64,000 bases of DNA from Eledone cirrhosa (taxonomy: Eukaryota). The stretch lies in the NCBI GenBank assembly GCA_964016885.1, contig OZ024744.1:35898001-35962000 (forward strand), read 5' to 3'. Shown here piece after piece: positions 9,320-63,957 of the stretch. The position numbers and the translations under genes are program-made. Below the pieces are notes generated by a model. The model ran no database searches, was not told the DNA's origin, and saw nothing but the letters and a program-made list of their open reading frames with translations. Position 1 is the stretch's first letter, and every line of letters starts with the position of its first letter.

Positions 9320-11551
9320 TTATACTTCTCTTAGGTCAGTGTTGTTTGTTTGGGTGTTGTTGTTGTTCCACTCATTCTTTCTGTTTAGCTTTGGTCTTCT
9401 AATTTCTATTTCACTGGCCTCTCTGATTTGCCTATCTGCTGGGTCATTCCTATGTTTAGATATTATTCTAATTTCTATGTTGTCTATGTTACCGTCATGT
9501 TGTTGTCTAGCATGTTCGTATAGTACTGACCCGTTTTTTCGTCCTTTTAGTTCCCCCCAGTGTTGGTCTATCCTTTCACCTATGCTACGAGCTGTCTCAC
9601 CTATGTATGTTGTTGTCGTGTTTCTGCAAGTACCCTCTGTACATCTTATGCTATAGACTACGTTTCTAGTTTTACAGTTTATCCGGGGGTTCACCTTACA
9701 TATGATACATTTCCTATTGGTACAGTGGGTTTTCTTAAAAGGGTAGGTTTTGCTGATCAGGGATTTTATGGTGGTTCCTGGCTTTTCTACCACCTTTATT
9801 TTTAAGTGGGTCTTTCTCAGGGCCTTTCTACACTGGTTAGCTAATTTCCCTCCAGGGGTGGCGTCCACAAACATGACACTCTGATATCTCTGGTTGTCGT
9901 ACCATGATGTGGCTTTCCCTATCTTATGTCTAGCCCTATCTAAGCTATTCCATGATTTGCTCCTGTATAGTGGGCAAATTCCTTTCATGTCCAGTTCTAT
10001 GAGGGTCTTATACTTTTCCATGGCTCCTTCGTTTACTCTGACTCTGTCTCTTTGGTTGTAGCCAGAGAACTGCATGCGGTTGATGAAGTGTTGGATGTGT
10101 CCTTCCATTTCTGTTGGGTCGCACATGCTGGACACATTCTTCATCACTCGTACCAAATCTGCGATCAGAATATTAAACTTAGCACTACTGGACATTGCTG
10201 AGTTTTTGAGTATCAGGTATTTGGAGGCCATGGGTTTAGCATAGTGTGAGTGGAGAATTTGGGCTCTCTCGTCTATAGTGTTAATCCAGAGTTCTGTGTC
10301 TAATACAGGTAGTCTATTGTTAGGGTGTTTGGAAGGGAAGTCTATAGTTACAGTTATACTCTGGTGTATGGAATTAGCTATCTGCTGGATGCTTTCCATC
10401 GTGCTACGTTCTAAATCAAACTTGTTAGTGCTCTCTAGTGGGGGTGTTCTTATAACTATATTGATATCGTCTACATAACGAGAGTACATGATGAGGTCTA
10501 TGGAGCTTTCATTAAGGAGGAGATCTTTAAGTCTCCTTTCCCACCATACCATGAAAAGGTTGGCAACATCACCAGCTATGCTGACGCCGATGGCTGCTCC
10601 CTCATTTTGGGTGTAGATTTTCTCATTGAACTTAAATATGTGGCCCTTTAGGGTAGTTTTGATACTAGCCCCTATTGCATGTGCGACCATTTTTCTTACC
10701 TGATCAGTGTTTTGGGGGGTCCGTATAGCTTTGGTCCACCCAATCCACCTTCCTATGGGAGTCTTTTTAGCCATTGAGGTTATGGTGGGGGGTCTACCTC
10801 TTATAGGTCTACTAGGGCAGAAACATCTAAGGTCATGGCTGTCTAGGTAGTCAGTGTCGTAGGTAAGTCTAAGTAGGAGGCCCAGTTCGTCTGTGTCGAC
10901 GTCGCAGAACTCCACCTCACTCTCAATGACCATCTCCACACATCTTTTCACAGCAAAATCAATGTTAATGGATGGGTACAGTGACACCACATCCATGCTG
11001 CCTATTATGCAGTTGGATAGGCTCCTGTTTTTGTTGCACTCACTGATTCTGCTGAGGAGGTCCTCTGTACTTTCACATACATCTGGGGACATCTTGATTA
11101 TGGGGCGTATAACCATTGAGAGGAAGTAGGAGATCCTGTAGTTGCTAGCTATATTAGCTCCGCATACGGGTCTTGTTGGTGGTCCTGTTGTCGGGTCGTC
11201 GACTGTCTTGTGGTCTTTGCGGAGCCCATACAAGGGTGGTATGCCATTGTTAGACGCCTGGAAGTTGTTGGCAGTGCGTCTGCTTGGCTTTAGGATGTCA
11301 GTCCACATCATCATGTGAGCGTTGAGGATTTTTTCTCTCCCATCGTGTGTTAGATGTGCAACTTCGCTCGTGTTGGTGATGTGGGGTTGCATTGCCTCGA
11401 TGTAGTTCGGCATGCTATCTATTGACATCCTACCAGACTTATCTGTGGGTAGACACACTACCTCACCATCCCTTGTGCGCTGCTTGAGGCTAACCAAGCC
11501 TTCTACAGGTTTTATCCCAAGTTGTTGGGCCTCTGGTCTGCTCTGTCTCAT
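9320..11551 (-). CDS. PLE reverse transcriptase + GIY-YIG endonuclease, 5'-truncated, uninterrupted frame (left arm)
   Basis: TDKSG, PPLYGLRKDHK, RPV, SMDVVSLYPSI, QNEGAAIG, RYVDD, CxxxxCxxC linker, VVYSIRC...YIGET; residues upstream of M at 11551 are junction read-through. Confidence 0.92.
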   Translation of the reverse strand: MRQSRPEAQQLGIKPVEGLVSLKQRTRDGEVVCLPTDKSGRMSIDSMPNYIEAMQPHITNTSEVAHLTHDGREKILNAHMMMWTDILKPSRRTANNFQASNNGIPPLYGLRKDHKTVDDPTTGPPTRPVCGANIASNYRISYFLSMVIRPIIKMSPDVCESTEDLLSRISECNKNRSLSNCIIGSMDVVSLYPSINIDFAVKRCVEMVIESEVEFCDVDTDELGLLLRLTYDTDYLDSHDLRCFCPSRPIRGRPPTITSMAKKTPIGRWIGWTKAIRTPQNTDQVRKMVAHAIGASIKTTLKGHIFKFNEKIYTQNEGAAIGVSIAGDVANLFMVWWERRLKDLLLNESSIDLIMYSRYVDDINIVIRTPPLESTNKFDLERSTMESIQQIANSIHQSITVTIDFPSKHPNNRLPVLDTELWINTIDERAQILHSHYAKPMASKYLILKNSAMSSSAKFNILIADLVRVMKNVSSMCDPTEMEGHIQHFINRMQFSGYNQRDRVRVNEGAMEKYKTLIELDMKGICPLYRSKSWNSLDRARHKIGKATSWYDNQRYQSVMFVDATPGGKLANQCRKALRKTHLKIKVVEKPGTTIKSLISKTYPFKKTHCTNRKCIICKVNPRINCKTRNVVYSIRCTEGTCRNTTTTYIGETARSIGERIDQHWGELKGRKNGSVLYEHARQQHDGNIDNIEIRIISKHRNDPADRQIREASEIEIRRPKLNRKNEWNNNNTQTNNTDLREV

Positions 11552-14036
11552 AGATAGAAACAACAACAACCACCATGATAACAATAATAGCAACACACAC
11601 AACTATGACGATAGAAATAACGACAACCCCTTAGAGAAACTATTTTTCAACCCAGCTGACAAAACATATAAGATGGGTAATATCTATCCTACGAGGTTAC
11701 CCTTTAATAAAAGAGTTTACATACCACAGCAAATAGATGACGAGACGGAGGCACAGTTCACCATAGCTAGAAATAAGATTAGACAAGTAGTAGACAGGTA
11801 CACTATGAGACAGAGCAGACCAGAGGCCCAACAACTTGGGATAAAACCTGTAGAAGGCTTGGTTAGCCTCAAGCAGCGCACAAGGGATGGTGAGGTAGTG
11901 TGTCTACCCACAGATAAGTCTGGTAGGATGTCAATAGATAGCATGCCGAACTACATCGAGGCAATGCAACCCGACATCACCAACACGAGCGAAGTTGCAC
12001 AACTAACACACGATGGGAGAGAAAAAATCCTCAACGCTCACATGATGATGTGGACTGACATCCTAAAGCCAAGCAGACGCACTGCCAACAACTTCCAGGC
12101 GTCTAACAATGGCATACCACCCTTGTATGGGCTCCGCAAAGACCACAAGACAGTCGACGACCCGACAACAGGACCACCAACAAGACCCGTATGCGGAGCT
12201 AATATAGCTAGCAACTACAGGATCTCCTACTTCCTCTCAATGGTTATACGCCCCATAATCAAGATGTCCCCAGATGTATGTGAAAGTACAGAGGACCTCC
12301 TCAGCAGAATCAGTGAGTGCATCAAAAACAGGAGCCTATCCAACTGCATAATAGGCAGCATGGATGTGGTGTCACTGTACCCATCCATTAACATTGATTT
12401 TGCTGTGAAAAGATGTGTGGAGATGATCATTGAGAGTGAGGTGGAGTTCTGCGACGTCGACACAGACGAACTGGGCCTCCTACTTAGACTTACCTACGAC
12501 ACTGACTACCTAGACAGCCATGACCTTAGATGTTTCTGCCCTAGTAGACCTATAAGAGGTAGACCCCCCACCATAACCTCAATGGCTAAAAAGACTCCCA
12601 TAGGAAGGTGGATTGGGTGGACCAAAGCTATACGGACCCCCCAAAACACTGATCAGGTAAGAAAAATGGTCGCACATGCAATAGGGGCTAGTATCAAAAC
12701 TACCCTAAAGGGCCACATATTTAAGTTCAATGAGAAAATCTACACCCAAAATGAGGGAGCAGCCATCGGCGTCAGCATAGCTGGTGATGTTGCCAACCTT
12801 TTCATGGTATGGTGGGAAAGGAGACTTAAAGATCTCCTCCTTAATGAAAGCTCCATAGACCTCATCATGTACTCTCGTTATGTAGACGATATCAATATAG
12901 TTATAAGAACACCCCCACTAGAGAGCACTAACAAGTTTGATTTAGAACGTAGCACGATGGAAAGCATCCAGCAGATAGCTAATTCCATACACCAGAGTAT
13001 AACTGTAACTATAGACTTCCCTTCCAAACACCCTAACAATAGACTACCTGTATTAGACACAGAACTCTGGATTAACACTATAGACGAGAGAGCCCAAATT
13101 CTCCACTCACACTATGCTAAACCCATGGCCTCCAAATACCTGATACTCAAAAACTCAGCAATGTCCAGTAGTGCTAAGTTTAATATTCTGATCGCAGATT
13201 TGGTACGAGTGATGAAGAATGTGTCCAGCATGTGCGACCCAACAGAAATGGAAGGACACATCCAACACTTCATCAACCGCATGCAGTTCTCTGGCTACAA
13301 CCAAAGAGACAGAGTCAGAGTATACGAAGGAGCCATGGAAAAGTATAAGACCCTCATAGAACTGGACATGAAAGGAATTTGCCCACTATACAGGAGCAAA
13401 TCATGGAATAGCTTAGATAGGGCTAGACATAAGATAGGGAAGGCCACATCATGGTACGACAACCAGAGATATCAGAGTGTCATGTTTGTGGACGCCAGCC
13501 CTGGAGGGAAATTAGCTAACCAGTGTAGAAAGGCCCTGAGAAAGACCCACTTAAAAATAAAGGTGGTAGAAAAGCCAGGAACCACCATAAAATCCCTGAT
13601 CAGCAAAACCTACCCTTTTAAGAAAACCCACTGTACCAATAGGAAATGTATCATATGTAAGGTGAACCCCCGGATAAACTGTAAAACTAGAAACGTAATC
13701 TATAGCATAAGATGTACAGAGGGTACTTGCAGAAACACGACAACAACATACATAGGTGAGACAGCTCGTAGCATAGGTGAAAGGATAGACCAACACTGGG
13801 GGGAACTAAAAGGACGAAAAAACGGGTCAGTACTATACGAACATGCTAGACAACAACATGACGGTAACATAGACAACATAGAAATTAGAATAATATCTAA
13901 ACATAGGAATGACCCAGCAGATAGGCAAATCAGAGAGGCCAGTGAAATAGAAATTAGAAGACCAAAGCTAAACAGAAAGAATGAGTGGAACAACAACAAC
14001 ACCCAAACAAACAACACTGACCTAAGAGAAGTATAA
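11550..14036 (+). CDS. PLE reverse transcriptase + GIY-YIG endonuclease, 5'-truncated, uninterrupted frame (right arm)
   Basis: Same motifs; about 7 aa differences from the left arm. The first ~46 aa of the 11412 ORF are antisense of the left arm, not PLE protein. Confidence 0.93.
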   Translation: MDRNNNNHHDNNNSNTHNYDDRNNDNPLEKLFFNPADKTYKMGNIYPTRLPFNKRVYIPQQIDDETEAQFTIARNKIRQVVDRYTMRQSRPEAQQLGIKPVEGLVSLKQRTRDGEVVCLPTDKSGRMSIDSMPNYIEAMQPDITNTSEVAQLTHDGREKILNAHMMMWTDILKPSRRTANNFQASNNGIPPLYGLRKDHKTVDDPTTGPPTRPVCGANIASNYRISYFLSMVIRPIIKMSPDVCESTEDLLSRISECIKNRSLSNCIIGSMDVVSLYPSINIDFAVKRCVEMIIESEVEFCDVDTDELGLLLRLTYDTDYLDSHDLRCFCPSRPIRGRPPTITSMAKKTPIGRWIGWTKAIRTPQNTDQVRKMVAHAIGASIKTTLKGHIFKFNEKIYTQNEGAAIGVSIAGDVANLFMVWWERRLKDLLLNESSIDLIMYSRYVDDINIVIRTPPLESTNKFDLERSTMESIQQIANSIHQSITVTIDFPSKHPNNRLPVLDTELWINTIDERAQILHSHYAKPMASKYLILKNSAMSSSAKFNILIADLVRVMKNVSSMCDPTEMEGHIQHFINRMQFSGYNQRDRVRVYEGAMEKYKTLIELDMKGICPLYRSKSWNSLDRARHKIGKATSWYDNQRYQSVMFVDASPGGKLANQCRKALRKTHLKIKVVEKPGTTIKSLISKTYPFKKTHCTNRKCIICKVNPRINCKTRNVIYSIRCTEGTCRNTTTTYIGETARSIGERIDQHWGELKGRKNGSVLYEHARQQHDGNIDNIEIRIISKHRNDPADRQIREASEIEIRRPKLNRKNEWNNNNTQTNNTDLREV

Positions 14037-14306: not shown

Positions 14307-14380
14307 AACACCACTGACGATGTTGCAGATGTGCAACGAAAGATTTATGTAAATTATGTAAACTATATATATATGTGTTT
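14307..14380 (+). ncRNA. Hammerhead motif in PLE 3' UTR/pseudo-LTR (mirror at ~8977-9049, minus)
   Basis: CTGACGA-t-gttgca gatg tgcaac-GAAA-g(a)tttatgta aat tatgtaaa c-TA; stems II and III pair, proximal stem I is weak. Confidence 0.55.
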
Positions 14381-14635: not shown

Positions 14636-15412
14636 GACGTAAAATAAGAAAATTATAAAAGTTTCACTCCAACTAATTAGTTTCTAAAAGGGAATAAACA
14701 TGGTTTCCGAATGGAACACATGGAGAAGACCTTTCGTCATCAGGAAGTCTATTCTCAGCTAAGTTCCCAGGCAATTCGTGGACACAGGGAACTTATACAA
14801 AAATAATTCAGTGGATGAAAATGAGCAAGCGTGGACTAAATTCCAAGACATTGAAAAAATCACTGCCTACTTGGTCGGTGGCAAATTCAAAAGAATCAAT
14901 CACGTGACATTGAGGTTAATCAGTGAGGAGTGGGGTGTTAAGAAGACAGTAGCCGAACTATTACTATGAACTATAGTAGCAGTTTTGGCAAATTTTGTTC
15001 AACAAAATAATTTGGAGATAATTATAAAGAATTAGTATATCTACCAACAGTGATTTTTTCAATGTCTTCGAATTTAGTCCACGCTTGCTTTTTTCTATCC
15101 ACTGAATTATTTTTGTATAAGTTCCCTGTGTCCACGCATTGCCTGGGAACTTAGCTGAAAATGGATTTCCTGATGACGAAAGGCCTTCTCCATGTGTTCC
15201 ATTCGGAAACCATGTTTATTCCCTTTTAGAAACTAATTAGTTGGAGTGAAATTTTAGTAAGTAAGTTAATTTTTATAATTTTCTTATTTTACGTCTTTCA
15301 TATAATTGTTCTGCATCCCCTTACATTGAACCACAAAGTTACTAAGACAAAACCTATATATTTGTTAGCATAGGTATGCATCTGTATATATATGTTGGTA
15401 GAAATACTAATT

Positions 15413-36840: not shown

Positions 36841-39800
36841 ATGGCGACTATACAAGTTGGATGTTTGAATGTACGTGGCCTGGGCATGCCCTGGAAACAG
36901 GGCCAGCTTTTAAATGATCCCAGGTCACATTGTATAGATGTGATAGCCATCACCGAGTCCAGGATTCACGACAAGCAGCAGCTAACCTCCATGTTCGATT
37001 ATTTTGAGATCTACGCATCTCTCTGTCAGCCAGGAGAGGGAGGGGGAGTTACTGTTTTGTTTCGAAAAACTTGGATCTGAAAATACAGACGATTAACTTG
37101 GACCCGGAGGGCAGCCTCGTAGTCCTGGACGTGAAGGTGGAGCTTTCCGACTGGGACATCGCGACCAGAGCTCTTCAAGCGTCTGGAGCCATTCCTGGGA
37201 ACGTCTCGCTCCTTATGTTTAAGGGGACTGAAATGGCATCTTAAACGCACGTTGGGACTATGTAGGAATTTGTGACAATAGAGGGGGGGGGGGTGTAATA
37301 GCCTCAAAAATCTCATCAGCCAATTCCAACTTGCTGATACATATCGACTAGACTTTCCAAGTACACCACTGTGGACGTGGTGCAACCGCCCTGTGTCTTC
37401 TAGATCGTATTTAGATAGATTTTTAATTAGACAGAATGATAAGTAAACATTAAGCTGTTCACAAATGTACATGGTTGCCTATTCAGACCACAAATTAGTC
37501 ACTTGCGTATTCAACCTTGATAGAACACATAGACAGAGACCCGGATACTGGAAGCTAAACATGTCGCTCCCGGTGCGTAATGCCTACAGTAAACGGATTA
37601 ACACCTTAGGTAAGTGCCTGTTGACGGGGGCGATCGTCAACAACAGGTGGTAGAGCTCTCTCAAGAGAGCAATTAGAATAGAATCGATAACATTTAGCAA
37701 GGAAGTAGCTTTAGAAAAAAACAAAACTGAAAAGGAACTGGTAGGTAAAGTGGAAGAGGCACTTAGGAATAGCAGTACAGCTGACGTGCTAGCGGCGAGA
37801 ACGGCTCTAGACCAGTTATTCAACGTGAAACACGAAGGTTGTATTGTCAGAAGTAGAACACGTGCTCTAAGAAACGAGGGAGCTAAAGCTGTTAATTGGG
37901 CTCGAGTGGCAGAGGCGAAAAGGGGCAACACAATTCGGTCTTTGCAAGACAAAGATTGACGCATTATACTTGAATCCAAGCAGATATTCACGGCCTTCCA
38001 GCAACATTTTGCAAAACTGTTCGGGCAAAGCGGTACGTCGAACGAGGTGATGGACTTCAGCTCCTACCTCGACGGCGTACCACGACTCTCGAGCACGGAT
38101 GCAGAGAGCTGCGAAAGGCCGATCACAGCGGGCGAAATAGAAGATGCCCTAGGCGTCTGCGGGAAACGCAAATCACCCGGTTTAGATGGTCTACCCTATG
38201 AGTTTTACATAGGCATGCCGGACTTGTTCTCTGGCGCCCTCGAAGCGGTCTACTGCAACTGGCAGCAGAACGGGACAATTCCCAGTTCTGTAGGCAGAGG
38301 CGTAGTAACGCTGATCAGGAAAGATGAGAACAAGGGGGATGAGATAAGAAATTTCAGGCCCATAACACTGCTCAACACAGAGTTAAAGATTTTGGTCAAG
38401 GTGTTAGCAGCGAGGCTGGCACTTGTCGTCTAGAACCTGGTAGGGGAAGCGCAAACGTGTGCAATCCCGACCAGGTCCATACACGACAACCTCCACCTCA
38501 TGCGATACATCATAGAGAGGGGTATGTGTGTAAACCTGGCTTCGGTGGGGCTCTGATCAATTTAGATCAGTCTAAGGCATTCGATAAGGTAGACCATCAA
38601 TACTTGGAAGCGGTTCTCAAGGCGGCCGGTTTCGGACACATCTTCAGAGGCTGGATCGCTGCCATGCACAGCAGCATTTGCTCGGCAGTCAAGGTGAATG
38701 GCTACTTATCGGAGTCATTCCAAATCATGCGTTTCATCCGTCAGGGATTCCCTCTCTCCTCCATTCTGTATGTACTGACTCTTGAGCCACTACTGCGGAA
38801 GCTGGAGCTATTGCAGGGCGTACCGATCGAACAAGGACTGCGGAAAGCAGCGTCGGCTTATGCCGACAACATAACCGTAATGATTTCGAAAACTTCGGAA
38901 ACCGGGGTAACGGCAACCTACTACAGGAATACGAAACGTTGACAGGAGCAACACTAAACCCAAAGAAGTCTGTCGGTTTTCAACTCGGTACATGGAGACG
39001 CAAACCCATGCCTTCCGACAGTGTCGCTGGATGCTGGACGGATGGACCGGTGAAATTGCTCGGGGTCTGGTTTGGTCCAGACCTCCAGGTGGACAAGAAC
39101 TGGAACGAGGTCACGGCGAAGGTGTTTGCACTCACCCAGAAGTGGGCTGAGTGCAAATTCTCCTTGAAAGGTCGAGCGGAGGTGGCGAACACTTACCTAG
39201 CGTCCGTCTTCTACTACCGCTGACAGTCGTGCCTTGCCTCCGGGAATACCTCACCAAAATGGAACGCCTACTTTTCAAGTTCCTCTGGAGGAAACAGGCT
39301 CCATTGTTGAGGAGATCCATCTGCTGTCAATACCGAAGGGATGGGCATGCCGTGGCTGATGATGCGCAAACACGCACTGAGGCTACGCCATCTCCATGTA
39401 TTCCTGACCGGTGAACCGGTGTAGCTGGCGTTTGTGAGACAAGCTCCTCCACAACTCATGTCACTAACCGAGCTGTAGTCATGGGTCAAGCGAAGACCAA
39501 AAATGGATGCCTGGTACCTCGAGGCCTACAGGCGCTCGCAGCCCTCTACCAAGCGGAAACGGCAATCAGCGGAGATTCCACTTCGACATTCTATAGGGGA
39601 TTAGTGGAGGATATGTGCGACGACGTTCTCGGGGAAACTCTAGCATCGAGGATGACGAACTGACCAGTCTGTTCGGGAGGACTTTCCGTCCAGGGCATAT
39701 GGATAACTTCCAGAGGTCTCTGGCCTGGCAGTGCTACCGAGGAGATCTACAAGTTCGAGACAAAGTCTACAGGCACGGACGCCCTTGCAGAAATCCTGCC

Positions 39801-44400: not shown

Positions 44401-47263
44401 AATTAACGGAAGCCATTGTTAAAAATAGATGGTGGGTACTCTCTCAAGAAAGCAATTAGAGTGGAATGGATAGGGTTTAGCAGAGAATTAGCCTCAGAGA
44501 GAAACAAAATAGAAAGAGAACTAGTAGCCAAGGTAGAGGAGGCACTTAGAATTGGCAACGCGGCTAGAGTGTTATCGTCGAGAACGGCACTGGACCAGTT
44601 CTTCAATGCGACACACGAAGGCTGCCTGGTCAGAGGCAAAACACGTGCTCTAGGAAACGAAGGAGCGAAAGCTGTCAGCTGGGCCCGAATGGCGGAGGCA
44701 AAAAGTGGCAACAAGTCCACGATTCGGTTTTGAAAGACCAAAACGGACGCGTGCTACTTGACCCCAAGCAAATTTGCGCGGCCTTTCAGCAGCACTTTGC
44801 GCAACTGTTTGAGCAGAACGACAGTGAGCCGAGCGGGGCAATGGACTTTAGTTCATACCTCGACTTTAGTTCATACCTCGAACACGGACGCCGAGTTCTG
44901 CGAAAGGCCGATCACGGACACTGAGATACAGGACGCTCTGGGCGCTGCGGGAAACGCAAATCACCCAGTCTAGATGGCCTACCCTATGAGTTTTACATAG
45001 GCATGCCTGACTTGTTCTCTGGCGTCCTCGAAACCATCTACTGCAATTGGCAGCAGAACGGGACAATTCCCAGTTCTGCAGGCAAGGACGTAGTAAGGCT
45101 GATCAGGAAAGACGAGAACAAGGGGAACGAAATTAACAACTTCAGGGCCATAACTCTGCTCAACACAGAGTTAAAGATTTTGGTGAAGGTGCTAGTGACG
45201 AGGTTGACGCTTGTCGTCGAGAACCTGGTAGGGAAAGCAGAAACGTGTGCAATCCCAACCAGGTCCATACACGACAGCCTCCACCTCATGCGATACATCA
45301 TAGAGAGGGTGGGTAGTAAATCCGACTTTGGTGGAGCTCTGATCAATTTGGATCAATCTAAGGCATTCGATAGGGTCGACCATCGATACTTGGAAGCGGT
45401 TCTCAATGCCGCCTGTTTCGGTCGTTTTTCAGAGGCTGGATCAAGGTGTTGCACACCAGCATCTACTCGAGGTTCAAGGTGAACGGCTACCTATCGGAGC
45501 CGTTCACAATCACGCGTTCCATTCAACAGGGATGCCTTCTCTCCTCCATTCTGTACGTATTGACTCTAGAGCCACTACTGCGGGAAATGGAGCTGTTGCA
45601 GGGCATCCCTCTAGAACCGGGACTGAGCAAAGAGGCGTCGGCTTATACCAACGACGTGACGGTACTGGTGTCGAGCACGTCGGAAATCGGGGTGATCGGC
45701 AACTTACTGAAAGAATACGAAACGCTGAAGGGAACAAAACTAAACCCGGACAAGTCTGTCCGTTTGCAACTCGCTACGTGGAGAGGCAAACTAATGACGT
45801 CCGACAGCTTTGTTGGACGCTGGGCGGATAGAGCGGTGAAATTGCTCGGCGTTTGGTTCGGTCCAGACCTCCAGGTGGAGAAAAACTGGAACGAGGTCAC
45901 GGCCAAGGTGTTTGCGCTCACCCAGAAGTGGGCAGAGTGCAAACTGTCCTTGAAAGGTCGAGTGGAGGTGGCGAACACTTTCATAGCGGCCGTCATCTAC
46001 TACCGCTTGACTGTCGTGCCTTGTCTCCGTGAACACCTCGCCAAGATGGAACACATGCTCTTCCAGTTTCTGTGGAAGAAGCAGGCTCCCTAGTGAGGTG
46101 ATCCGTCTACTGTCAGCACTCTTCCAACGGAGGGCTGGGAATGCGGTGGCGGATGATGCGCAAACATGCTCTGAGGCTACGGCATCTCTAGGTATTCCTC
46201 ACAGACCACCAACCGGTGTGGGCACCGTTTGTGAGACAGGCTTTCCCGCAGCTCGTCTCGCTGATGGAGCTGCTGTCCTGGGTCAAGAAAAGACCGAAAA
46301 CGATGGGCGCCTGGCACACTGAATGCGCTCAGGCGCTCACAGTCCTCTGGCAAGCGAGCACAGCAATCAGTGGGGACTCCACTTCGACATTCTATGGAGG
46401 GATTGTACGTTACAAGTGTGACGACGTGCTCGGGGAGACTCTAGGCGTCGAAGACGATGAGCTTACCAGTCTCTTTGGTAGGACTTTCTGCACGAGACCT
46501 ATGGACAACTTCCAGAGGTCCCTGGCCTGGCAGTGCTACTGAGGAGCTCTACCAGTTGATGACAAGATCTACAGGCACGAGCGCCCCGGCAGGGATCCTT
46601 CCAAGAGGACGTGTCCAAGATGCGAGCAGGACATTGAAATTGTCCTGCACGCAATTGTACACTGCCCGAGCGTAACCGACCTGTGGAACTATGCAGAACA
46701 ACTGCTGTCGCATATGGGACAAATCCAATTGACTGCCGAGTCCATAGTAAGGATCAAACCGCCAACTTCTTTCAAAAACGAAAGAGAGGCGGTTTTCCTC
46801 TGTACAGTGGTTATGGTGAAAGAGGTTATATGGTGGACGTGATTGAGAGGACTGAGGACAGATGCCTTTCTCTCCGGACAACAACTCATTCCCTTCTTTA
46901 GATACCACTTTAGAAGGAGAATCAGAATGGAGAGAGAGGCACTGCACCCCAGTAAATTTACTGAAAGGTGGGTGAATGAAGCGAAAATGGCCCGAGTGAT
47001 TGGGCCATCTCTGTTTATAAGCCTGTAGGTTAAAGAAGAGAGCAAAAGGAAGAAAGGAGCACTTGCACCACACGCTCCTGAAGTTGAGGGTTGTTCTATC
47101 GACGGGGTATTAACAACCCATTTGTGACGCCTCCCCCCTATTGGGGATTTCGATTGTTATATTTGTTTGTTTCAATATTTTTTTACACGACTGTATGTAC
47201 AATCCCCCGGCATGTCTTTGTATTGTCCCCATTTCTTGTGCGCCCTTGTGGCAAATAAAGAAA
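41450..47263 (+). mobile_element. Full-length decayed Tx1/L1 LINE (ORF1 ~41659-43550, ORF2 43598-47028)
   Basis: ORF2 starts MACLRVG..NVRGL; RT and C-terminal motifs; AATAAA at ~47254. Confidence 0.9.
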
Positions 47264-49069: not shown

Positions 49070-49138
<69 letters not shown>

Positions 49139-49144
<6 letters not shown>

Positions 49145-50888
49145 CAAATAACGAAACGAAATTAAATTTCGTTTCGTTTGTAACTCACTTTTGTATGACT
49201 GACGCTTAAACAATTAAGTTAAAAATGTACATCCACATATGTATACTGAAATACTAGTATGCATATGAATACACACACGTGTACATATGTAGATGTACCG
49301 AGTTTTCACTGGTCACTTTACTGTGAGTGTCCAGCTATTCCGTATGTAGACACACAGACAAACCGGTTCTTAGAGTCATACTGGTTTTTGAGGAAACACC
49401 TTTCCTCTATTCTCCAGAAAGCCAGACAAGGAATATTGGACTAGTTTCGATGTTGTTACATCTCATCAGCAATATTTACCTATCTTCCGGCTTCTCTAGA
49501 GAATCGTGAAAGCACATATCGTTATATGCTTTTTCTATGAAAATTAGTAGTGGGCAGACCAATTTGCATAGAGCGTGAGTACGTACCGGTTCAACGGAGA
49601 CGATAAAAACAAATAACGAAACGAAATTAAATTTCGTTTCGTTTGTAACTCACTTTTGTATGACTGACGCTTAAACAATTAAGTTAAAAATGTACATCCA
49701 CATATGTATACTGAAATACTAGTATGCATATGAATACACACACGTGTACATATGTAGATGTACCGAGTTTTCACTGGTCACTTTACTGTGAGTGTCCAGC
49801 TATTCCGTATGTAGACACACAGACAAACCGGTTCTTAGAGTCATACTGGTTTTTGAGGAAACACCTTTCCTCTATTCTCCAGAAAGCCAGACAAGGAATA
49901 TTGGACTAGTTTCGATGTTGTTACATCTCATCAGCAATATTTACCTATCTTCCGGCTTCTCTAGAGAATCGTGAAAGCACATATCGTTATATGCTTTTTC
50001 TATGAAAATTAGTAGTGGGCAGACCAATTTGCATAGAGCGTGAGTACGTACCGGTTCAACGGAGACGATAAAAACAAATAACGAAACGAAATTAAATTTC
50101 GTTTCGTTTGTAACTCACTTTTGTATGACTGACGCTTAAACAATTAAGTTAAAAATGTACATCCACATATGTATACTGAAATACTAGTATGCATATGAAT
50201 ACACACACGTGTACATATGTAGATGTACCGAGTTTTCACTGGTCACTTTACTGTGAGTGTCCAGCTATTCCGTATGTAGACACACAGACAAACCGGTTCT
50301 TAGAGTCATACTGGTTTTTGAGGAAACACCTTTCCTCTATTCTCCAGAAAGCCAGACAAGGAATATTGGACTAGTTTCGATGTTGTTACATCTCATCAGC
50401 AATATTTACCTATCTTCCGGCTTCTCTAGAGAATCGTGAAAGCACATATCGTTATATGCTTTTTCTATGAAAATTAGTAGTGGGCAGACCAATTTGCATA
50501 GAGCGTGAGTACGTACCGGTTCAACGGAGACGATAAAAACAAATAACGAAACGAAATTAAATTTCGTTTCGTTTGTAACTCACTTTTGTATGACTGACGC
50601 TTAAACAATTAAGTTAAAAAAGATGTAACAAAAGAGATGTAACAACATCGAAACTAGTCCAATATTCCTTGTCTGGCTTTCTGGAGAATAGAGGAAAGGT
50701 GTTTCCTCAAAAACCAGTATGACTCTAAGAACCGGTTTGTCTGTGTGTCTACATACGGAATAGCTGGACACTCACAGTAAAGTGACCAGTGAAAACTCGG
50801 TACATCTACATATGTACACGTGTGTGTATTCATATGCATACTAGTATTTCAGTATACATATGTGGATGTACATTTTTAACTTAATTGT
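49139..50888 (-). mobile_element. Retrozyme-like tandem array 1: 3.2 x 465 bp plus inverted 268 bp arm
   Basis: Identical units at 465 bp spacing; inversion junction at 50620/50621; (TA)n flanks. Confidence 0.92.
49432..49476 (-). ncRNA. Type I HHR, GUC site (repeated at 49897-49941, 50362-50406)
   Basis: aatattg-CTGATGA-gatgt aaca acatc-GAAA-CTAG-TC-caatatt. Confidence 0.95.
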
Positions 50889-50900
50889 ATATATATATAT

Positions 50901-51434: not shown

Positions 51435-51505
51435 TGATGTACATGGGAGTCGAACCCACATTTTCGGTTATCGAGACCATTGTGCTACCATTACACCAAC
51501 ACATC
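51435..51505 (-). tRNA. tRNA-like cloverleaf, anticodon CGA with short variable loop (pseudo-tRNA or atypical)
   Basis: GATGTGT TG GTGT AATGGTA GCAC A ATGGT CTCGATA ACCGA AAAT GTGGG TTCGACT CCCAT GTACATC A; T5 run ~10 nt downstream. Confidence 0.6.
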
Positions 51506-56122: not shown

Positions 56123-59102
56123 AATTAAGTTAAAAATGTACATCCACATATGTATACTGAAATACTAGTATGCATATGAATACACACACGTATACATATG
56201 TAGATGTACCGATTTTTTCACTGGTCACTTTACTGTGAGTGACCAGCTATTCTGTATGTAAACACACAGACAAACCGGTTTTTAGAGTCATACTGGTTTT
56301 TGAGGAAACACCTTTCCTCTATTCTCCAGAAAGCCAGACAAGGAATATTGAACTAGTTTCGTTGTTGTTACAACTCATCAGCAATATTTACCTATCTTCC
56401 GGCCTTTCTAGAGAATCGTAAAAGCACATATCGTTATATGCTTTTTCTTTGAAAATTAGTAGTGGGCAGACTAATTTGCATAGAGCGTGAGTACGTACCG
56501 GTTCAACGGAGACGATAAAAACAAATAACGAAACGAAATTAAATTTCGTTTCGTTTGTAACTCACTTTCGTATGACTGACGCTTAAACAATTAAGTTAAA
56601 AATGTACATCCACATATGTATACTGAAATACTAGTATGCATATGAATACACACACGTATACATATGTAGATGTACCGATTTTTTCACTGGTCACTTTACT
56701 GTGAGTGACCAGCTATTCTGTATGTAAACACACAGACAAACCGGTTTTTAGTTTCGTTTCGTTATTTGTTTTTATCGTCTCCGTTGAACCGGTACGTACT
56801 CACGCTCTATGCAAATTAGTCTGCCCACTACTAATTTTCAAAGAAAAAGCATATAACGATATGTGCTTTTACGATTCTCTAGAAAGGCCGGAAGATAGGT
56901 AAATATTGCTGATGAGTTGTAACAACAACGAAACTAGTTCAATATTCCTTGTCTGGCTTTCTGGAGAATAGAGGAAAGGTGTTTCCTCAAAAACCAGTAT
57001 GACTCTAAAAACCGGTTTGTCTGTGTGTTTACATACAGAATAGCTGGTCACTCACAGTAAAGTGACCAGTGAAAAAATCGGTACATCTACATATGTATAC
57101 GTGTGTGTATTCATATGCATACTAGTATTTCAGTATACATATGTGGATGTACATTTTTAACTTAATTGTTTAAGCGTCAGTCATACGAAAGTGAGTTACA
57201 AACGAAACGAAATTTAATTTCGTTTCGTTATTTGTTTTTATCGTCTCCGTTGAACCGGTACGTACTCACGCTCTATGCAAATTAGTCTGCCCACTACTAA
57301 TTTTCAAAGAAAAAGCATATAACGATATGTGCTTTTACGATTCTCTAGAAAGGCCGGAAGATAGGTAAATATTGCTGATGAGTTGTAACAACAACGAAAC
57401 TAGTTCAATATTCCTTGTCTGGCTTTCTGGAGAATAGAGGAAAGGTGTTTCCTCAAAAACCAGTATGACTCTAAAAACCGGTTTGTCTGTGTGTTTACAT
57501 ACAGAATAGCTGGTCACTCACAGTAAAGTGACCAGTGAAAAAATCGGTACATCTACATATGTATACGTGTGTGTATTCATATGCATACTAGTATTTCAGT
57601 ATACATATGTGGATGTACATTTTTAACTTAATTGTTTAAGCGTCAGTCATACGAAAGTGAGTTACAAACGAAACGAAATTTAATTTCGTTTCGTTATTTG
57701 TTTTTATCGTCTCCGTTGAACCGGTACGTACTCACGCTCTATGCAAATTAGTCTGCCCACTACTAATTTTCAAAGAAAAAGCATATAACGATATGTGCTT
57801 TTACGATTCTCTAGAAAGGCCGGAAGATAGGTAAATATTGCTGATGAGTTGTAACAACAACGAAACTAGTTCAATATTCCTTGTCTGGCTTTCTGGAGAA
57901 TAGAGGAAAGGTGTTTCCTCAAAAACCAGTATGACTCTAAAAACCGGTTTGTCTGTGTGTTTACATACAGAATAGCTGGTCACTCACAGTAAAGTGACCA
58001 GTGAAAAAATCGGTACATCTACATATGTATACGTGTGTGTATTCATATGCATACTAGTATTTCAGTATACATATGTGGATGTACATTTTTAACTTAATTG
58101 TTTAAGCGTCAGTCATACGAAAGTGAGTTACAAACGAAACGAAATTTAATTTCGTTTCGTTATTTGTTTTTATCGTCTCCGTTGAACCGGTACGTACTCA
58201 CGCTCTATGCAAATTAGTCTGCCCACTACTAATTTTCAAAGAAAAAGCATATAACGATATGTGCTTTTACGATTCTCTAGAAAGGCCGGAAGATAGGTAA
58301 ATATTGCTGATGAGTTGTAACAACAACGAAACTAGTTCAATATTCCTTGTCTGGCTTTCTGGAGAATAGAGGAAAGGTGTTTCCTCAAAAACCAGTATGA
58401 CTCTAAAAACCGGTTTGTCTGTGTGTTTACATACAGAATAGCTGGTCACTCACAGTAAAGTGACCAGTGAAAAAATCGGTACATCTACATATGTATACGT
58501 GTGTGTATTCATATGCATACTAGTATTTCAGTATACATATGTGGATGTACATTTTTAACTTAATTGTTTAAGCGTCAGTCATACGAAAGTGAGTTACAAA
58601 CGAAACGAAATTTAATTTCGTTTCGTTATTTGTTTTTATCGTCTCCGTTGAACCGGTACGTACTCACGCTCTATGCAAATTAGTCTGCCCACTACTAATT
58701 TTCAAAGAAAAAGCATATAACGATATGTGCTTTTACGATTCTCTAGAAAGGCCGGAAGATAGGTAAATATTGCTGATGAGTTGTAACAACAACGAAACTA
58801 GTTCAATATTCCTTGTCTGGCTTTCTGGAGAATAGAGGAAAGGTGTTTCCTCAAAAACCAGTATGACTCTAAAAACCGGTTTGTCTGTGTGTTTACATAC
58901 AGAATAGCTGGTCACTCACAGTAAAGTGACCAGTGAAAAAATCGGTACATCTACATATGTATACGTGTGTGTATTCATATGCATACTAGTATTTCAGTAT
59001 ACATATGTGGATGTACATTTTTAACTTAATTGTTTAAGCGTCAGTCATACGAAAGTGAGTTACAAACGAAACGAAATTTAATTTCGTTTCGTTATTTGTT
59101 TT
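56123..59102 (+). mobile_element. Retrozyme-like tandem array 2: inverted arm of 1.35 units (56123-56749) plus 5.0 x 466 bp
   Basis: Identical units at 466 bp spacing; ~3-4% diverged from array 1; (TA)n flanks. Confidence 0.92.
56902..56946 (+). ncRNA. Type I HHR, GUU site (also 57368, 57834, 58300, 58766 plus; 56344-56388 minus)
   Basis: aatattg-CTGATGA-gttgt aaca acaac-GAAA-CTAG-TT-caatatt. Confidence 0.93.
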
Positions 59103-59379
59103 TATATATATATATATATATATAAAAAAGTTCAAGACTCCGACGGCAGAGCTCAAGCTGTTTCGACGGCTATTTCTGGAGTCCAGAAATAGCCGTCAAA
59201 ACGGCTTGAACTTTTTCCTATTACCCACTCTACTACCCTAAGTATTGAGTACTCTGGTACGCCTGGTTCCTTACCACACTTACTTCGTTTTATATATATA
59301 TATATATGGTCCAGAAATAGCCGTCGAAACGGCTTCAGCTCTGCCATCGGGGTCATATCTTTTCCTATATATATATATA

Positions 59380-60240
59380 TAATTACAACAGTGACATAAA
59401 CATGTACTCAAGTTTCGTTGGGTTCTGGGTCCCAATTCATTCAGCCTGTCATGAGAAAATAAAAACAAAGTTGACCGCCTAGGGTTGATTGTGCTTTCCT
59501 TATAGGAATATAACAAAAGAGTTCATGCAGGGGCAGGTAATTTCGAAAAAAGTATAGAAAAAGGGGTTATTTAAAAAAAAGGGTAAGATCAAGGGAAGTA
59601 AATATTGCGAGACCACAGTCACTTTTGAATGAAAATAGAAGCACAATAATTTCTTCTAGTTGACCCCAAAGATCCAATTCCACTGAATTACGATATAGTC
59701 AGTAAATCAAAAGAAACTTCAGGACCTGTTAGAAGGCCTAAAACATTTATACAAAATATATTTCTTCACATGGGTACAACCGCCAAAGTTATCGTGCCGT
59801 GTGTTGAGGCAGTGCTTATCTGAAGCTAATCCACCATTTTTCGGAATTACAAAATCGACAAAATTTCGACCCATTTACGTAGACGGTAGATCTTTCCAAA
59901 ATTCGCCATTTGATAGAAAAGAGCGTGTCGTTGTTCTTGAGGTCCCATACGTGGTTTGCGAGCTGGATGGTATGTATTTTGTCGGGATATCTGAATGTTG
60001 TTTCGTGATTCAGTACCGGTTTTTAAACCGGCTATCTGACATACCAACATAGGTCCTGGCTTCAGTTTGGTGGTTCTGCTTGGTGGACATGTTTCAGGTC
60101 TTCTACATGATCATCCGTACGTTGAAGGGCGTTTGTGTTTGCCGGTGATATAGGCTAGTACATTGTTGGTGCAAGAGTATCCTATTTTTACTGTATGGCG
60201 ATTAAATATCTTTCGGTATTTATGGCCAACAGGGAAATGA
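59380..60240 (-). mobile_element. PLE 3' remnant (Hydra-like group) with decayed HHR at 59400-59449
   Basis: Minus translation FPVGHKYRKIFNRHTVKIGYSCTNNV, YVGMSDSRFKNRY; acagg-CTGAATGA-a ttggg..cccaa c-GAAA-CTTGAG-TA-catgt. Confidence 0.75.
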
Positions 60241-60252
60241 AGATCTATCTAC

Positions 60253-60332
<80 letters not shown>

Positions 60333-60346
60333 ATTTCTATCTATCT

Positions 60347-62364
60347 ATGCCGACCAGGTCCATACACGACAACCTCCACCCCATGCGATACATCATAGAG
60401 AGGGTAGGGTGTAAACCCGACTTCGGTGGGACCCTGATCAACTTGGATCAGTCTAAGGCTTTCGATAGGGTTGACCATCGTTACCTCGATGCGGTGCTCG
60501 AGGCGGCAGGCTTCGGACCCGTGTTTAGGGGCTGGATTGCTGCAATGCACAACAGCAACATCTGCTCAAGGGTCAAGGTGAACGGCTACCTCTCGGAGCC
60601 GTTCTATATTACGCGATCCATTCGACAGGGATGCCCTCTCTCCTCCCTTCTGTACGTACTGACTCTCGAGCCACTACTGCGGAAGTTGGAGCTATTGCAG
60701 GGCATCCCTCTGGAACCAGGACTGCGGAAAGCAGCGTCGGCCTACGCCGACGACGTGACAGTAATGGTGTCGAGCGCCTCGAAAATCGAGGAAGTCGGCA
60801 CCTTACTGAAGGAATGCGAAAGTTTCATGGGAGTGAAGCTGAACCGGGACAAGTCCATCGGTTTGCAACTCGGATCGTGGAGAGGCAAACCGATGCCTTC
60901 CGATGGCGTCGTCGGACGCTGGACGGACGGACCGGTAAAGCTGCTCGGGGTCTGGTTTGGTCCGGACCTCCAGGTGGAGAAGAACTGGAACGAAGTGACG
61001 GCCAAGGTGTTTGCACTCACCCAGAAGTGGGCCGAGTGCAAACTATCCTTGAAAGGTCGAGCGGAGGTGGCGAACACTTTTATAGCGTCCGCCATCTACT
61101 ACCGCTTGACCGTCGTGCCTTGTCCAGCCAAAACGCTCGCCAAAATGGAGCGCGCGCTCTTCCGATTCCTTTGGAAGAGGCGGGCTCCTTTGGTGAGAAG
61201 ATCCATCTGCTGCCAACACCCTTCTAACGGAGGGCTGGGGATGCCGTGGTTGACGATGCGCAAACACGCGCTCAGGCTGCGGCATCTCTACGTATTCCTC
61301 ACCGGACAACCGGTGTGGGCCCCGTTCGTGAGGCGAGCCTTCCCACGACTCGTCTCGCTGACCGAGCTGCAGTCCTGGGTCAAGCAAAGACCGAGGAAAA
61401 TGGGCGACTGGCACATCGAATGTGCTCAGGCGCTCACAGCCCTCTGGCAGGCGGACCCGGCGATCAGTGGAGACTCCACTTCGTCATTCTATAGAGGGTT
61501 GGTCCGCAGCAAGTGCGACGACGCGCTCGGTGAAACTCTAGGCGTAGAGGAAGATGAACTGGCCAGTCTGTTCGGTAGGACCTTCCGCCCGGGACCGATG
61601 GACAACTTCCAAAAGTCCCTGGCCTGGCAGTGATACCGAGGAGCTCTACCAGTTCGAGACAAGCTCTACAGACATGGGCGCCCGGGCAGGGACCCTGCAA
61701 AAAAGATCTGTCCGAGGTGCGTGCGAGACGAAGAAACCGTCGCGCACGCATTCATACACTGCCCGGGCGTCACTGAGCTGTGGGGCTATGTAGAACGACT
61801 ATTGTCGCGGGTGGGACCAATCCAGTTGACCACCGAGTCCATTGTCATGATCAAACCGCCACCCTCCTTCAAAAACGAAGGAGAGGCGGTTTTCCTTTGT
61901 GTGATAGCTATGGCGAAAGAGGTTGTATGGTGGACAAGGTTGAAAGGGCTGAGGTCAGACACCTTTCTCTCCGGCCAACAACTGATTCTTTTTTTCAAAT
62001 ACCACTTTGGAAGAAGAATCAGGATGGAGAGAGAGGTGCTGTACCACAGCAAGTTTTATGAAAGGTGGGTGAAAGTGGCGAGAATGGCCCGAGGGAATGG
62101 GCCTTCTCTCTATATCAGCCTGTAGGTTGAGGAAAAGGAGGAGGAGAGGAAAGGAATACAAGCTCTTCGTACTCCCGGAGATGAGAGTTGCACATTTTTT
62201 TTCGGGGGTATGTGTTACCCATATAAACTGTCTCCCTCTATTGGGGAAAATCGACTAACTTTTTAAATTCCATTTGTGATAACATTTTACACGTTTTTAT
62301 TGTATGTAAACTTCCCCCTTTGTATTTGTCCCCTTCTTTTGTGCCCCTGTGGCTAATAAAGAAA
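60347..62364 (+). mobile_element. 5'-truncated young Tx1/L1 LINE (RT + ZnF; one in-frame stop at 61631-61633)
   Basis: LINLDQSKAFDRVDH, IRQGCPLS, AYADDVT, CPRC..ETVAHAFIHC; (TCTA)n both sides. Confidence 0.95.
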
Positions 62365-62390
62365 TATATCTATCTATCTATCTATCTATC

Positions 62391-63957
62391 TGCTACTTGA
62401 CTCCAAGCAGATGTGCGCGGCTTCTCAGCGGCACTTTGCGCGACTATTTGAGAAGAACGACGGTGCACTGAACGGGGCAATGGACTTTGGTTCATACCTC
62501 GACGGCCTGCCACGTCTCTCGAGCATGGAAGCCGAGTTCTGCGAAAGACCTATCACAGCCACTGAGAAAAGTTGGAGAAAAACTGGAACGAGGTCATGGC
62601 CAAGGTATTTGCGCTCACCCAGAAGTGGGCAGAGTGAAAACTGTCTTTGAAAGATCGAGCAGGGGTTGCGAATACTTTCATAGCGTCCGTCATCTACTAC
62701 CGCTTGTCTGTCGTGCCTTGTCCCCGTGAATACCGCACCAAGATGGAACGTATGCTCTTCCAGTTCCAGTGGAAGAAGTAGGCTCCACTGGTGAGGAGAA
62801 CCGTCTGCTATCAACACCCTTCCAACGGAGGGCTGGGCATGCCGTGGCTAATGATGCGCAAAGATGCGCGGAGGCTACGGCATCTCCAGGTATTCCTCAC
62901 CGACCAACCGGTGTGAGCACCGTTCGTGAGACAGGCCTTCTCACAACTTGTCTCGCTGACAGAGCTGCTGTCCTGGGTCAAACGAAGACCGAAGAAGATG
63001 GGCGCCTGGCACATTGAATGCGCCCAGGCGCTCACAGTCCTCTGTCAAGCGGGCACAGCAATCAGTGGAACTCCACTTCGACATTTTATTGAGGGTTAGT
63101 ACTTTACAAGTGCGACGACGTGCTCGGCGAGACTCTAGGCGCCGAAGACGACGAGCTCACCAGTCTGTTCGGTAGGACTTTCCCCCCAGGACCTATGGAC
63201 AACTTCCAGAGTTCCCTGGCCTGGCAGTACTACCGAGGAGCTCTACCCGTTCGAGATAAGATCTACAGGCACGGATGCCCCGGCAGGGATCCTTCCAAGA
63301 GGATGTGTCCAAGGTGCGAGCAGGACATTGAAACCGTCTTGCACGCAATTGTACACTGCCCGGGCGTAAGCAACCTGTGGAACTATGCAGAACAACTGCT
63401 GTCGCGTATGGGACAAATGCAGTTGACTGCCGAGTCCATAGTAAGGATCAAACCGCCAGCCTCTTTCAAAAACGAAAGAGAGGCGGTTTTCCTCTGTACA
63501 GTGGCTATGGTGAAAGAGGTTATATGGTGGACGAGATTGAGAGGACTGAGAACAGATGCCTTTCTCTCCGGACAACAACCGATTCCCTTCTTTAAGTATC
63601 ATTTTAGAAGGAGAATTAGAGTGGAGAGAGAGGCACTGCACCCCAGTAAATTTACTGAAACGTGGGTGAATGAAGCGAAAATGGCCCGAGTGATTGGGCC
63701 TTCTCTGTATATAAGCCTGTAGGTTAAAGAAGAGAGCAAAAGGAAGAAGAGAGCACCTGCACAACACGCTCCTGAAGTTGAGGGTTGTTCTATTGACGGG
63801 GTATTAAACAACCCATTTGTGGTGTTTCCCCACTTTAGGGATTTCGATTTTTATAATTGTTTGTTTTATATTTTTTTTTACACGACTGTATGTAAAATCC
63901 CCGGCATGTGTCTGTGTATTGTCCCCTTTTCATGTGCGCCCTTGTGGCAAATAAAGA

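Follow-up and report, generated by a model that had tools for sequence, protein, structure and literature searches.

The 64,000-nucleotide stretch of the Eledone cirrhosa genome analyzed here (the window) carries two tandem arrays of a hammerhead-bearing repeat, and stem II of the ribozyme differs between them by the exchange of one Watson-Crick pair for another, reading GAUGU-AACA-ACAUC in array 1 and GUUGU-AACA-ACAAC in array 2. The question raised by this locus is whether the exchange reflects selection on RNA structure, as the original prediction proposed, or another process. The prediction described and located both stems correctly, and the same applies to the core, which is identical between the arrays, to the triplet change from GUC to GUU, the latter still an NUH triplet as reported in PMC2238771, and to the divergence of about 3-4%, for which we compute 3.4% (15 substitutions and 1 indel per 466 nt, with the 16 differing positions scattered along the unit). 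All complete motifs are A-U at the exchanged pair in array 1 (3/3) and U-A in array 2 (6/6). Genome-wide counts given below are pattern matches in the 3.0-Gb assembly. Units were compared in a set of 80, comprising arrays 1 and 2 and 78 loci that come from the first 100 junction loci of one contig (C1), from which 22 were dropped (21 with less than 335 nt of unit, plus the mis-oriented L083). Half-changed loci that were targeted were excluded from frequency tests, with the exception of L103, which is part of the position-ordered sample. The features concerned are as follows.

49138..50620, minus strand: direct arm of array 1, three 465-bp units and a partial one, A-U/GUC subfamily; 3' end at unit position 466, adjoining (AT)n
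49897..49941, minus strand: hammerhead motif of the middle array 1 unit, A49926 paired with U49915 (RNA strand), triplet GUC
50634..50891, plus strand: inverted arm of array 1, unit positions 139-397, its start falling inside the ribozyme core
56123..56751, minus strand: inverted arm of array 2, one U-A motif with core at 56357-56381; outer end at unit position 392, adjoining (AT)n
56747..59105, plus strand: direct arm of array 2, five identical 466-bp units; 3' end at unit position 466, adjoining (AT)n
56897..56949, plus strand: stem I extension, 56897-56899 with 56947-56949, and UA bulge at 56900-56901
56902..56946, plus strand: type I hammerhead motif, U-A/GUU subfamily, in the first direct unit of array 2
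56902..56908 with 56940..56946, plus strand: stem I of that motif, 7 bp
56909..56915, plus strand: catalytic core CUGAUGA, unchanged in 80 of 80 units
56916..56929, plus strand: stem II and loop, arms 56916-56920 and 56925-56929, exchanged pair U56917 with A56928
56930..56939, plus strand: GAAA core (56930-56933), 2-bp stem III within self-complementary ACUAGU, triplet GUU (56937-56939)

The motif fits a type I hammerhead, with CUGANGA and GAAA cores, three stems and an open stem I, and its cut site is predicted to lie after 56939 in the array 2 motif. The cleavage triplet conforms to the NUH rule, being GUC in 38 of the 80 units and GUU in 42; that rule covers GUU, with GUC the most effective triplet reported (PMC2238771). 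As stem III consists of 2 bp around a 2-nt loop, it is impossible as a simple hairpin, and the ACUAGU palindrome would permit a dimer, for which hammerhead precedent has been described (PMC3088659). Rfam gives no hammerhead match at the gathering score; at an E-value threshold, Hammerhead_HH9 (RF02275) matches 56891-56962 with 37.7 bits (E 4.3e-8), short of the gathering score of 52. The likeness to this model extends over its full length and includes the type I fold, a stem II of the form G-x-U-x, a 6-nt A-rich loop and the UA bulge in stem I, whereas stem III here has no 5-nt loop and the motif belongs to a mobile repeat and not to a conserved single locus. Alignment to the HH9 model suggests that the UA bulge at 56900-56901 is likely the tertiary contact partner of loop II. 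A third hammerhead type, with a CUGAAGA core, occurs at L149:2826-2884 (plus strand), where ACGCGU replaces ACUAGU in stem III; a palindrome kept while its center changes is what a dimeric ribozyme would need. Elsewhere in the window, an inverted repeat pair matching the loose core pattern (14704-14743, minus strand, and 15170-15209, plus strand) folds into no hammerhead.

By sequence, the array repeats have the anatomy of non-LTR retrozymes, with Penelope-like tandem, inverted and tail features in addition. They resemble the metazoan non-LTR retrozymes described in PMC7229834 in their short, low-GC tandem units (G+C 166/466, or 36%) with one type I hammerhead each, in the absence of a coding frame (no stop-to-stop frame of 100 amino acids overlaps either array), in a predicted RNA that is strongly self-paired (-162 kcal/mol, z -10.6 against shuffles), and in thousands of copies that share a genome with Penelope-like elements. 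They differ in that the unit, at 465-466 bp, lies slightly above the 150-450 bp reported there, and in that stem III closes on a 2-nt loop within a 6-nt palindrome in place of a tetraloop; cleavage and circular RNA, predicted for the array repeats, were demonstrated for those retrozymes. The copies are dispersed and mobile, as 1,995 places genome-wide end at one and the same unit base adjoining (AT)n. Of the 100 junction loci taken from contig C1, each with 1,375 bp of sequence, 59 contain an inverted arm, and all 31 outer ends in view fall at unit positions 391-397. The inverted 5' arm, the one-sided tail and the microsatellite target are traits of Penelope-type insertions, and the descriptions of such insertions and their non-autonomous derivatives in PMC8557442 and bioRxiv 10.64898/2026.07.22.740005 share with the arrays the tandem copies, the inverted 5'-truncated copy, the one-ended tail and (TA)n targets, although the tail is 30-40 bp there and about 70 nt here. 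By this analogy, mobilization by a Penelope-like enzyme may be proposed.

A candidate helper, a Penelope-like element, lies in the window at 11406-14036 (plus strand), with an inverted copy at 9320-11602 (minus strand) that reaches at least 8780. The Pfam search of the protein of the 11406-14036 element returned a weak RVT_1 match only and no GIY-YIG match, and comparison of the repeat unit with this element and with window positions 1-48000 gave no match beyond AT-rich stretches. In the 3' noncoding part of the element, at about 14310-14345 (plus strand), CUGACGA, a 6-bp hairpin and GAAA follow one another, and stems I and III are not evident. The window also contains a tRNA-like sequence at 51435-51505 (minus strand; Rfam 48.7 bits) directly preceded by a similar inverted stretch, two tandem 5'-truncated LINE-type reverse transcriptase copies at 60206-63803 (plus strand) ending in (ATCT)n, and further reverse transcriptase fragments at 38343-38939 and 45374-46090.

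The original prediction had placed the change between the two arrays, and here it has to be revised. Both arrays have identical or near-identical copies on other contigs, so that they represent two independent insertions which sample two subfamilies. Genome-wide, 9,971 places match the core pattern when the 14 nt of stem II are left free. Among the 9,334 copies with the stem II frame of the arrays, pair 2 is A-U in 4,105, U-A in 5,223, A·A in 3 and U·U in 3, that is, 9,328 copies are paired and 6 half-changed (r2 0.997). Unpaired single variants as frequent as paired ones, which would have spoken against the prediction, are thus absent. It is probable, in our judgment, that the roughly 9,300 copies of the 466-bp repeat fall into two subfamilies marked by A-U and U-A, and that these are separated by one exchange which took two steps, with a transient U·U form between them, and was kept for the sake of a folded stem II.

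The linkage across copies looks like the inheritance of apparently one event and not thousands of events. For each type, half-changed stems number 0.19-0.49 per 1,000 copies, which is not above the rate of other single changes in stem or loop (0.48-0.83), for example G or C at the 5' base of pair 2 (9 family copies), non-G at pair 4 (23 copies) or non-C at one loop base among U-A copies (13). Since stem and loop show stray changes at equally low rates, the scarcity of half-changed copies is not by itself evidence of selection. Four of the five half-changed loci consist of one altered unit on an ordinary background; none has therefore spread, and no half-changed pair 2 is common to two loci, in contrast to the loop change C148U, which is common to 24 of the 80 units. 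At one further locus, L174 (G000:C3:194685909-194685939), a single copy on a U-A background has exchanged both bases of pair 2 for G·U. It is the only second double change seen at this pair, and no intermediate is known for it.

The history of the pair is best read together with that of the triplet. The 80 units divide into A-U/GUC (37), A-U/GUU (4), U-A/GUU (37), U-A/GUC (1) and U·U/GUU (1). The change from GUC to GUU is separate from the pair exchange, as the 4 units combining A-U with GUU and the single U-A unit with GUC show. For maximum-likelihood trees, 10 more partial units were dropped to leave 70 rows, and on the resulting tree U142 marks one side of a single branch (support 97/90). 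With the trait columns removed, a single origin is not rejected (p-AU 1), yet exactly one change is found in just 30% of bootstrap trees (range, 1-3), and GUU needs two changes. Since the tree counts the exchange roughly once, the stem II pair would add little to a covariation test that takes phylogeny into account. Polarity was assessed from minor-allele frequency, the midpoint root and a sister family. The sister family has A-U at pair 2 and the midpoint root falls among A-U units, so A-U is likely the older state, and GUU likely came first.

A mixed array (L035/L036) brings the path of the exchange into view. Its A-U unit matches a U-A unit elsewhere (L081) at 407 of 409 nt, with the exchanged pair as the sole difference, and its remaining two units are U·U and have a private change in common. 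These U·U units are a possible fossil intermediate, found at one locus, and they match what a two-step path would predict. The mix could alternatively have come from a template switch between A-U and U-A RNAs. Across the sample, the sites of the exchanged pair form an isolated linkage cluster of two, one of 6 such clusters among 85 shared variants. It may be tentatively hypothesized, as a possibility to which we give rather less than even credence, that a crossing of a fitness valley has been kept whole on one haplotype, from A-U through U·U, there being no wobble route, to U-A, with the intermediate still beside its A-U parent in L035/L036. L036 (G000:C1:149585582-149588612) is chimeric in another respect, its inverted arm belonging to the sister family and its direct arm to the 466-bp family, which suggests that the arms of one insertion can be copied from different RNAs.

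Several observations bear on whether the fold itself has been selected. In the predicted fold of the 59-nt motif, stem II pairs have probabilities of 0.89-1.0 in the A-U and U-A forms against 0.0-0.17 in the U·U form, which is predicted to lose stem II by slipping into a shifted hairpin. When 15 substitutions are placed on the unit at random, at least one Watson-Crick double arises anywhere with P 0.13 and inside stem II with P 0.005. Accordingly, the two arrays alone are marginal evidence, and the claim that the double substitution indicates selection stands only in part: its conclusion is probably right, but the argument from two arrays is weaker than was claimed. Family-wide, two tightly linked Watson-Crick doubles are found (142/153 and 200/209) against a null mean of 0.15, and 174 of 20,000 shuffles reach two (P ~0.009); by chance, one or more would turn up in the family with a probability of 0.14. 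The consensus fold contains more pairs changed on both sides, such as 274/289, 275/288 and 197/212.

A comparison of 42 distinct motifs from both families shows both partners altered in 7 of 17 pairs, including 4 in stem II; 94% of cells are paired, against 34-55% in slid controls. Paired cells and covariation exceed 500 of 500 shuffles, measures which relatedness inflates, and a both-sided count of 7 is reached by 89 of 500 shuffles. Pair-breaking changes make up 15 of 41 variants found in at least three loci but 52 of 75 variants confined to one locus (P 0.0008). This signal is mostly due to shared variants being richer in transitions, even at unpaired sites: P is 0.45 for transitions alone, 0.047 when stratified and 0.08 without the exchanged pair. 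RNA editing as the source of wobble-keeping changes was considered and rejected, since A>G and T>C on the ribozyme strand stand at 18:15 among single and 20:17 among shared variants, with no excess, and the signal persists without A>G changes (P 0.006). The ribozyme region (5 shared, 6 single) is not depleted in shared variants relative to the rest of the unit (80 shared, 129 single), and one pair break, G144C, is common to 2 of the 80 units. Taken at this strength, selection likely preserves the RNA fold during spread.

The sister retrozyme family (L137-L166) places a bound on how strict such selection could be. It is about 72-78% similar to the 466-bp family in two short stretches, and its stem II reads AGCU/AGCU with a variable base pair (U·U, C·A, C-G or U-A), next to a GUA or GUU triplet. 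A pattern without G at the stem II base finds 13,859 copies, and most of the 100 matches listed have U·U or C·A there. A broken stem II pair can therefore amplify, which counts against strict selection. The family resembles the axolotl HHR_Amex2 of PMC7229834 in its U·U at the stem II base and its 2-bp stem III.

Three other accounts of the exchange deserve consideration beside selection on the fold. A loop-to-stem template switch, a process that the original prediction leaves out of account, might have copied GUUGU from the adjoining ACAAC, after which a second switch or an AAC slippage mended the 3' arm and the copy founded a subfamily by luck. Both single steps indeed have a local template: in the A-U form the reverse complement of the new 5' arm lies at unit position 147, and the new 3' hexamer directly repeats position 146. 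For rRNA, PMC8794818 reports loop-to-stem breaks that are then symmetrically repaired, as well as more instantaneous compensatory changes than expected at 4-nt loops, and the lone double change at pair 2 of L174 would also suit such a process. However, no single template switch or reverse-complement copy produces both changes, and the two templatable steps are no commoner than changes without a template at these sites or close by. Of 51 clustered differences, just 3 (5 lines when both directions are counted) resemble template switches, and their matches, all of 5-7 nt, are attainable by chance. All 6 U-A copies with an AAUA loop lie on U-A backgrounds, and we saw no recurrent double in the A-U lineage with this loop. 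Templated mutation with a fortunate founder is thus an unlikely account, and templating can be compatible with selection. An inversion of the whole hairpin was rejected, as it would keep the stem and flip the loop, whereas the loop is unchanged.

It could also be speculated that two independent transversions struck partner bases by coincidence between copying bursts, with an intermediate that left few copies as few insertions occurred. That few source lineages produce most copies, that a single event is at issue, that the chance of a linked double is 0.14 family-wide and that the sister family tolerates a stem II mismatch would all agree with this. Yet the exchanged sites are an isolated linkage pair, with the nearest A-U and U-A units differing there only; a double inside stem II has the low chance found in the array comparison, and further doubles exist. 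We regard neutral coincidence as improbable. The identity of units within each array, and the difficulty of assembling tandem arrays, might finally point to an assembly or sequencing artifact or to local duplication with gene conversion between the arrays. The genome-wide counts largely refute this very improbable account, as thousands of copies of both forms lie on many contigs and both strands. Moreover, the arrays differ at positions spread along the unit, each has closer relatives on other contigs, and the U-A form is also found in contigs of three other sequencing runs. In that comparison of two units with contigs of four runs, the A-U variant was not listed even for the best-matching run, and its absence was accordingly given no weight.

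Under selection on the fold, the course of events may be pictured as follows. The unit would be transcribed and would cleave itself, possibly after dimerizing by way of the stem III palindrome, and circularize, after which a Penelope-like element would reverse-transcribe it into (AT)n. A search of sequencing runs listed no RNA run with the repeat, a result that has no bearing on whether it is expressed. Selection would then act at the RNA stage, provided that efficient self-cutting, and with it another round of copying, is limited to RNAs whose stem II is folded. The pair would have gone once from A-U through a brief U·U mismatch to U-A, and local templates may have supplied either step.

An animal precedent is available in the pDo500 satellite hammerheads of Dolichopoda cave crickets, a tandem repeat with compensatory mutations in stems I and II, for which PMC2837043 reports 19 compensatory changes in 13 of 198 sequences and interprets them as functional constraint. 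The changes there are scattered over cloned repeats of several species, whereas here one exchange divides two genome-wide subfamilies and all half-changed copies can be counted. Our literature search, with most subscription papers and supplements outside its reach, found no publication on the 466-bp family or on covariation among retrozyme subfamilies, and the main text of PMC7229834 (Cervera and de la Pena 2020) contains neither "compensatory" nor "covariation."

In conclusion, the exchange is a real and ordinary compensatory change, probably selected, of a kind expected for structured RNA and with precedent in the cricket satellite hammerheads; the possible fossil U·U intermediate could be the sole part beyond routine. 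By suggesting, indirectly, that the hammerhead fold has kept a role in spreading the repeat, the exchange bears on whether such ribozymes serve Penelope-type mobility or merely ride on it, a question raised in PMC8557442. The four natural states of stem II are a ready assay set, and if the valley crossing is true, thousands of copies would allow selection on the fold of a retroposing RNA to be measured step by step and matched to the cleavage rates of natural variants.
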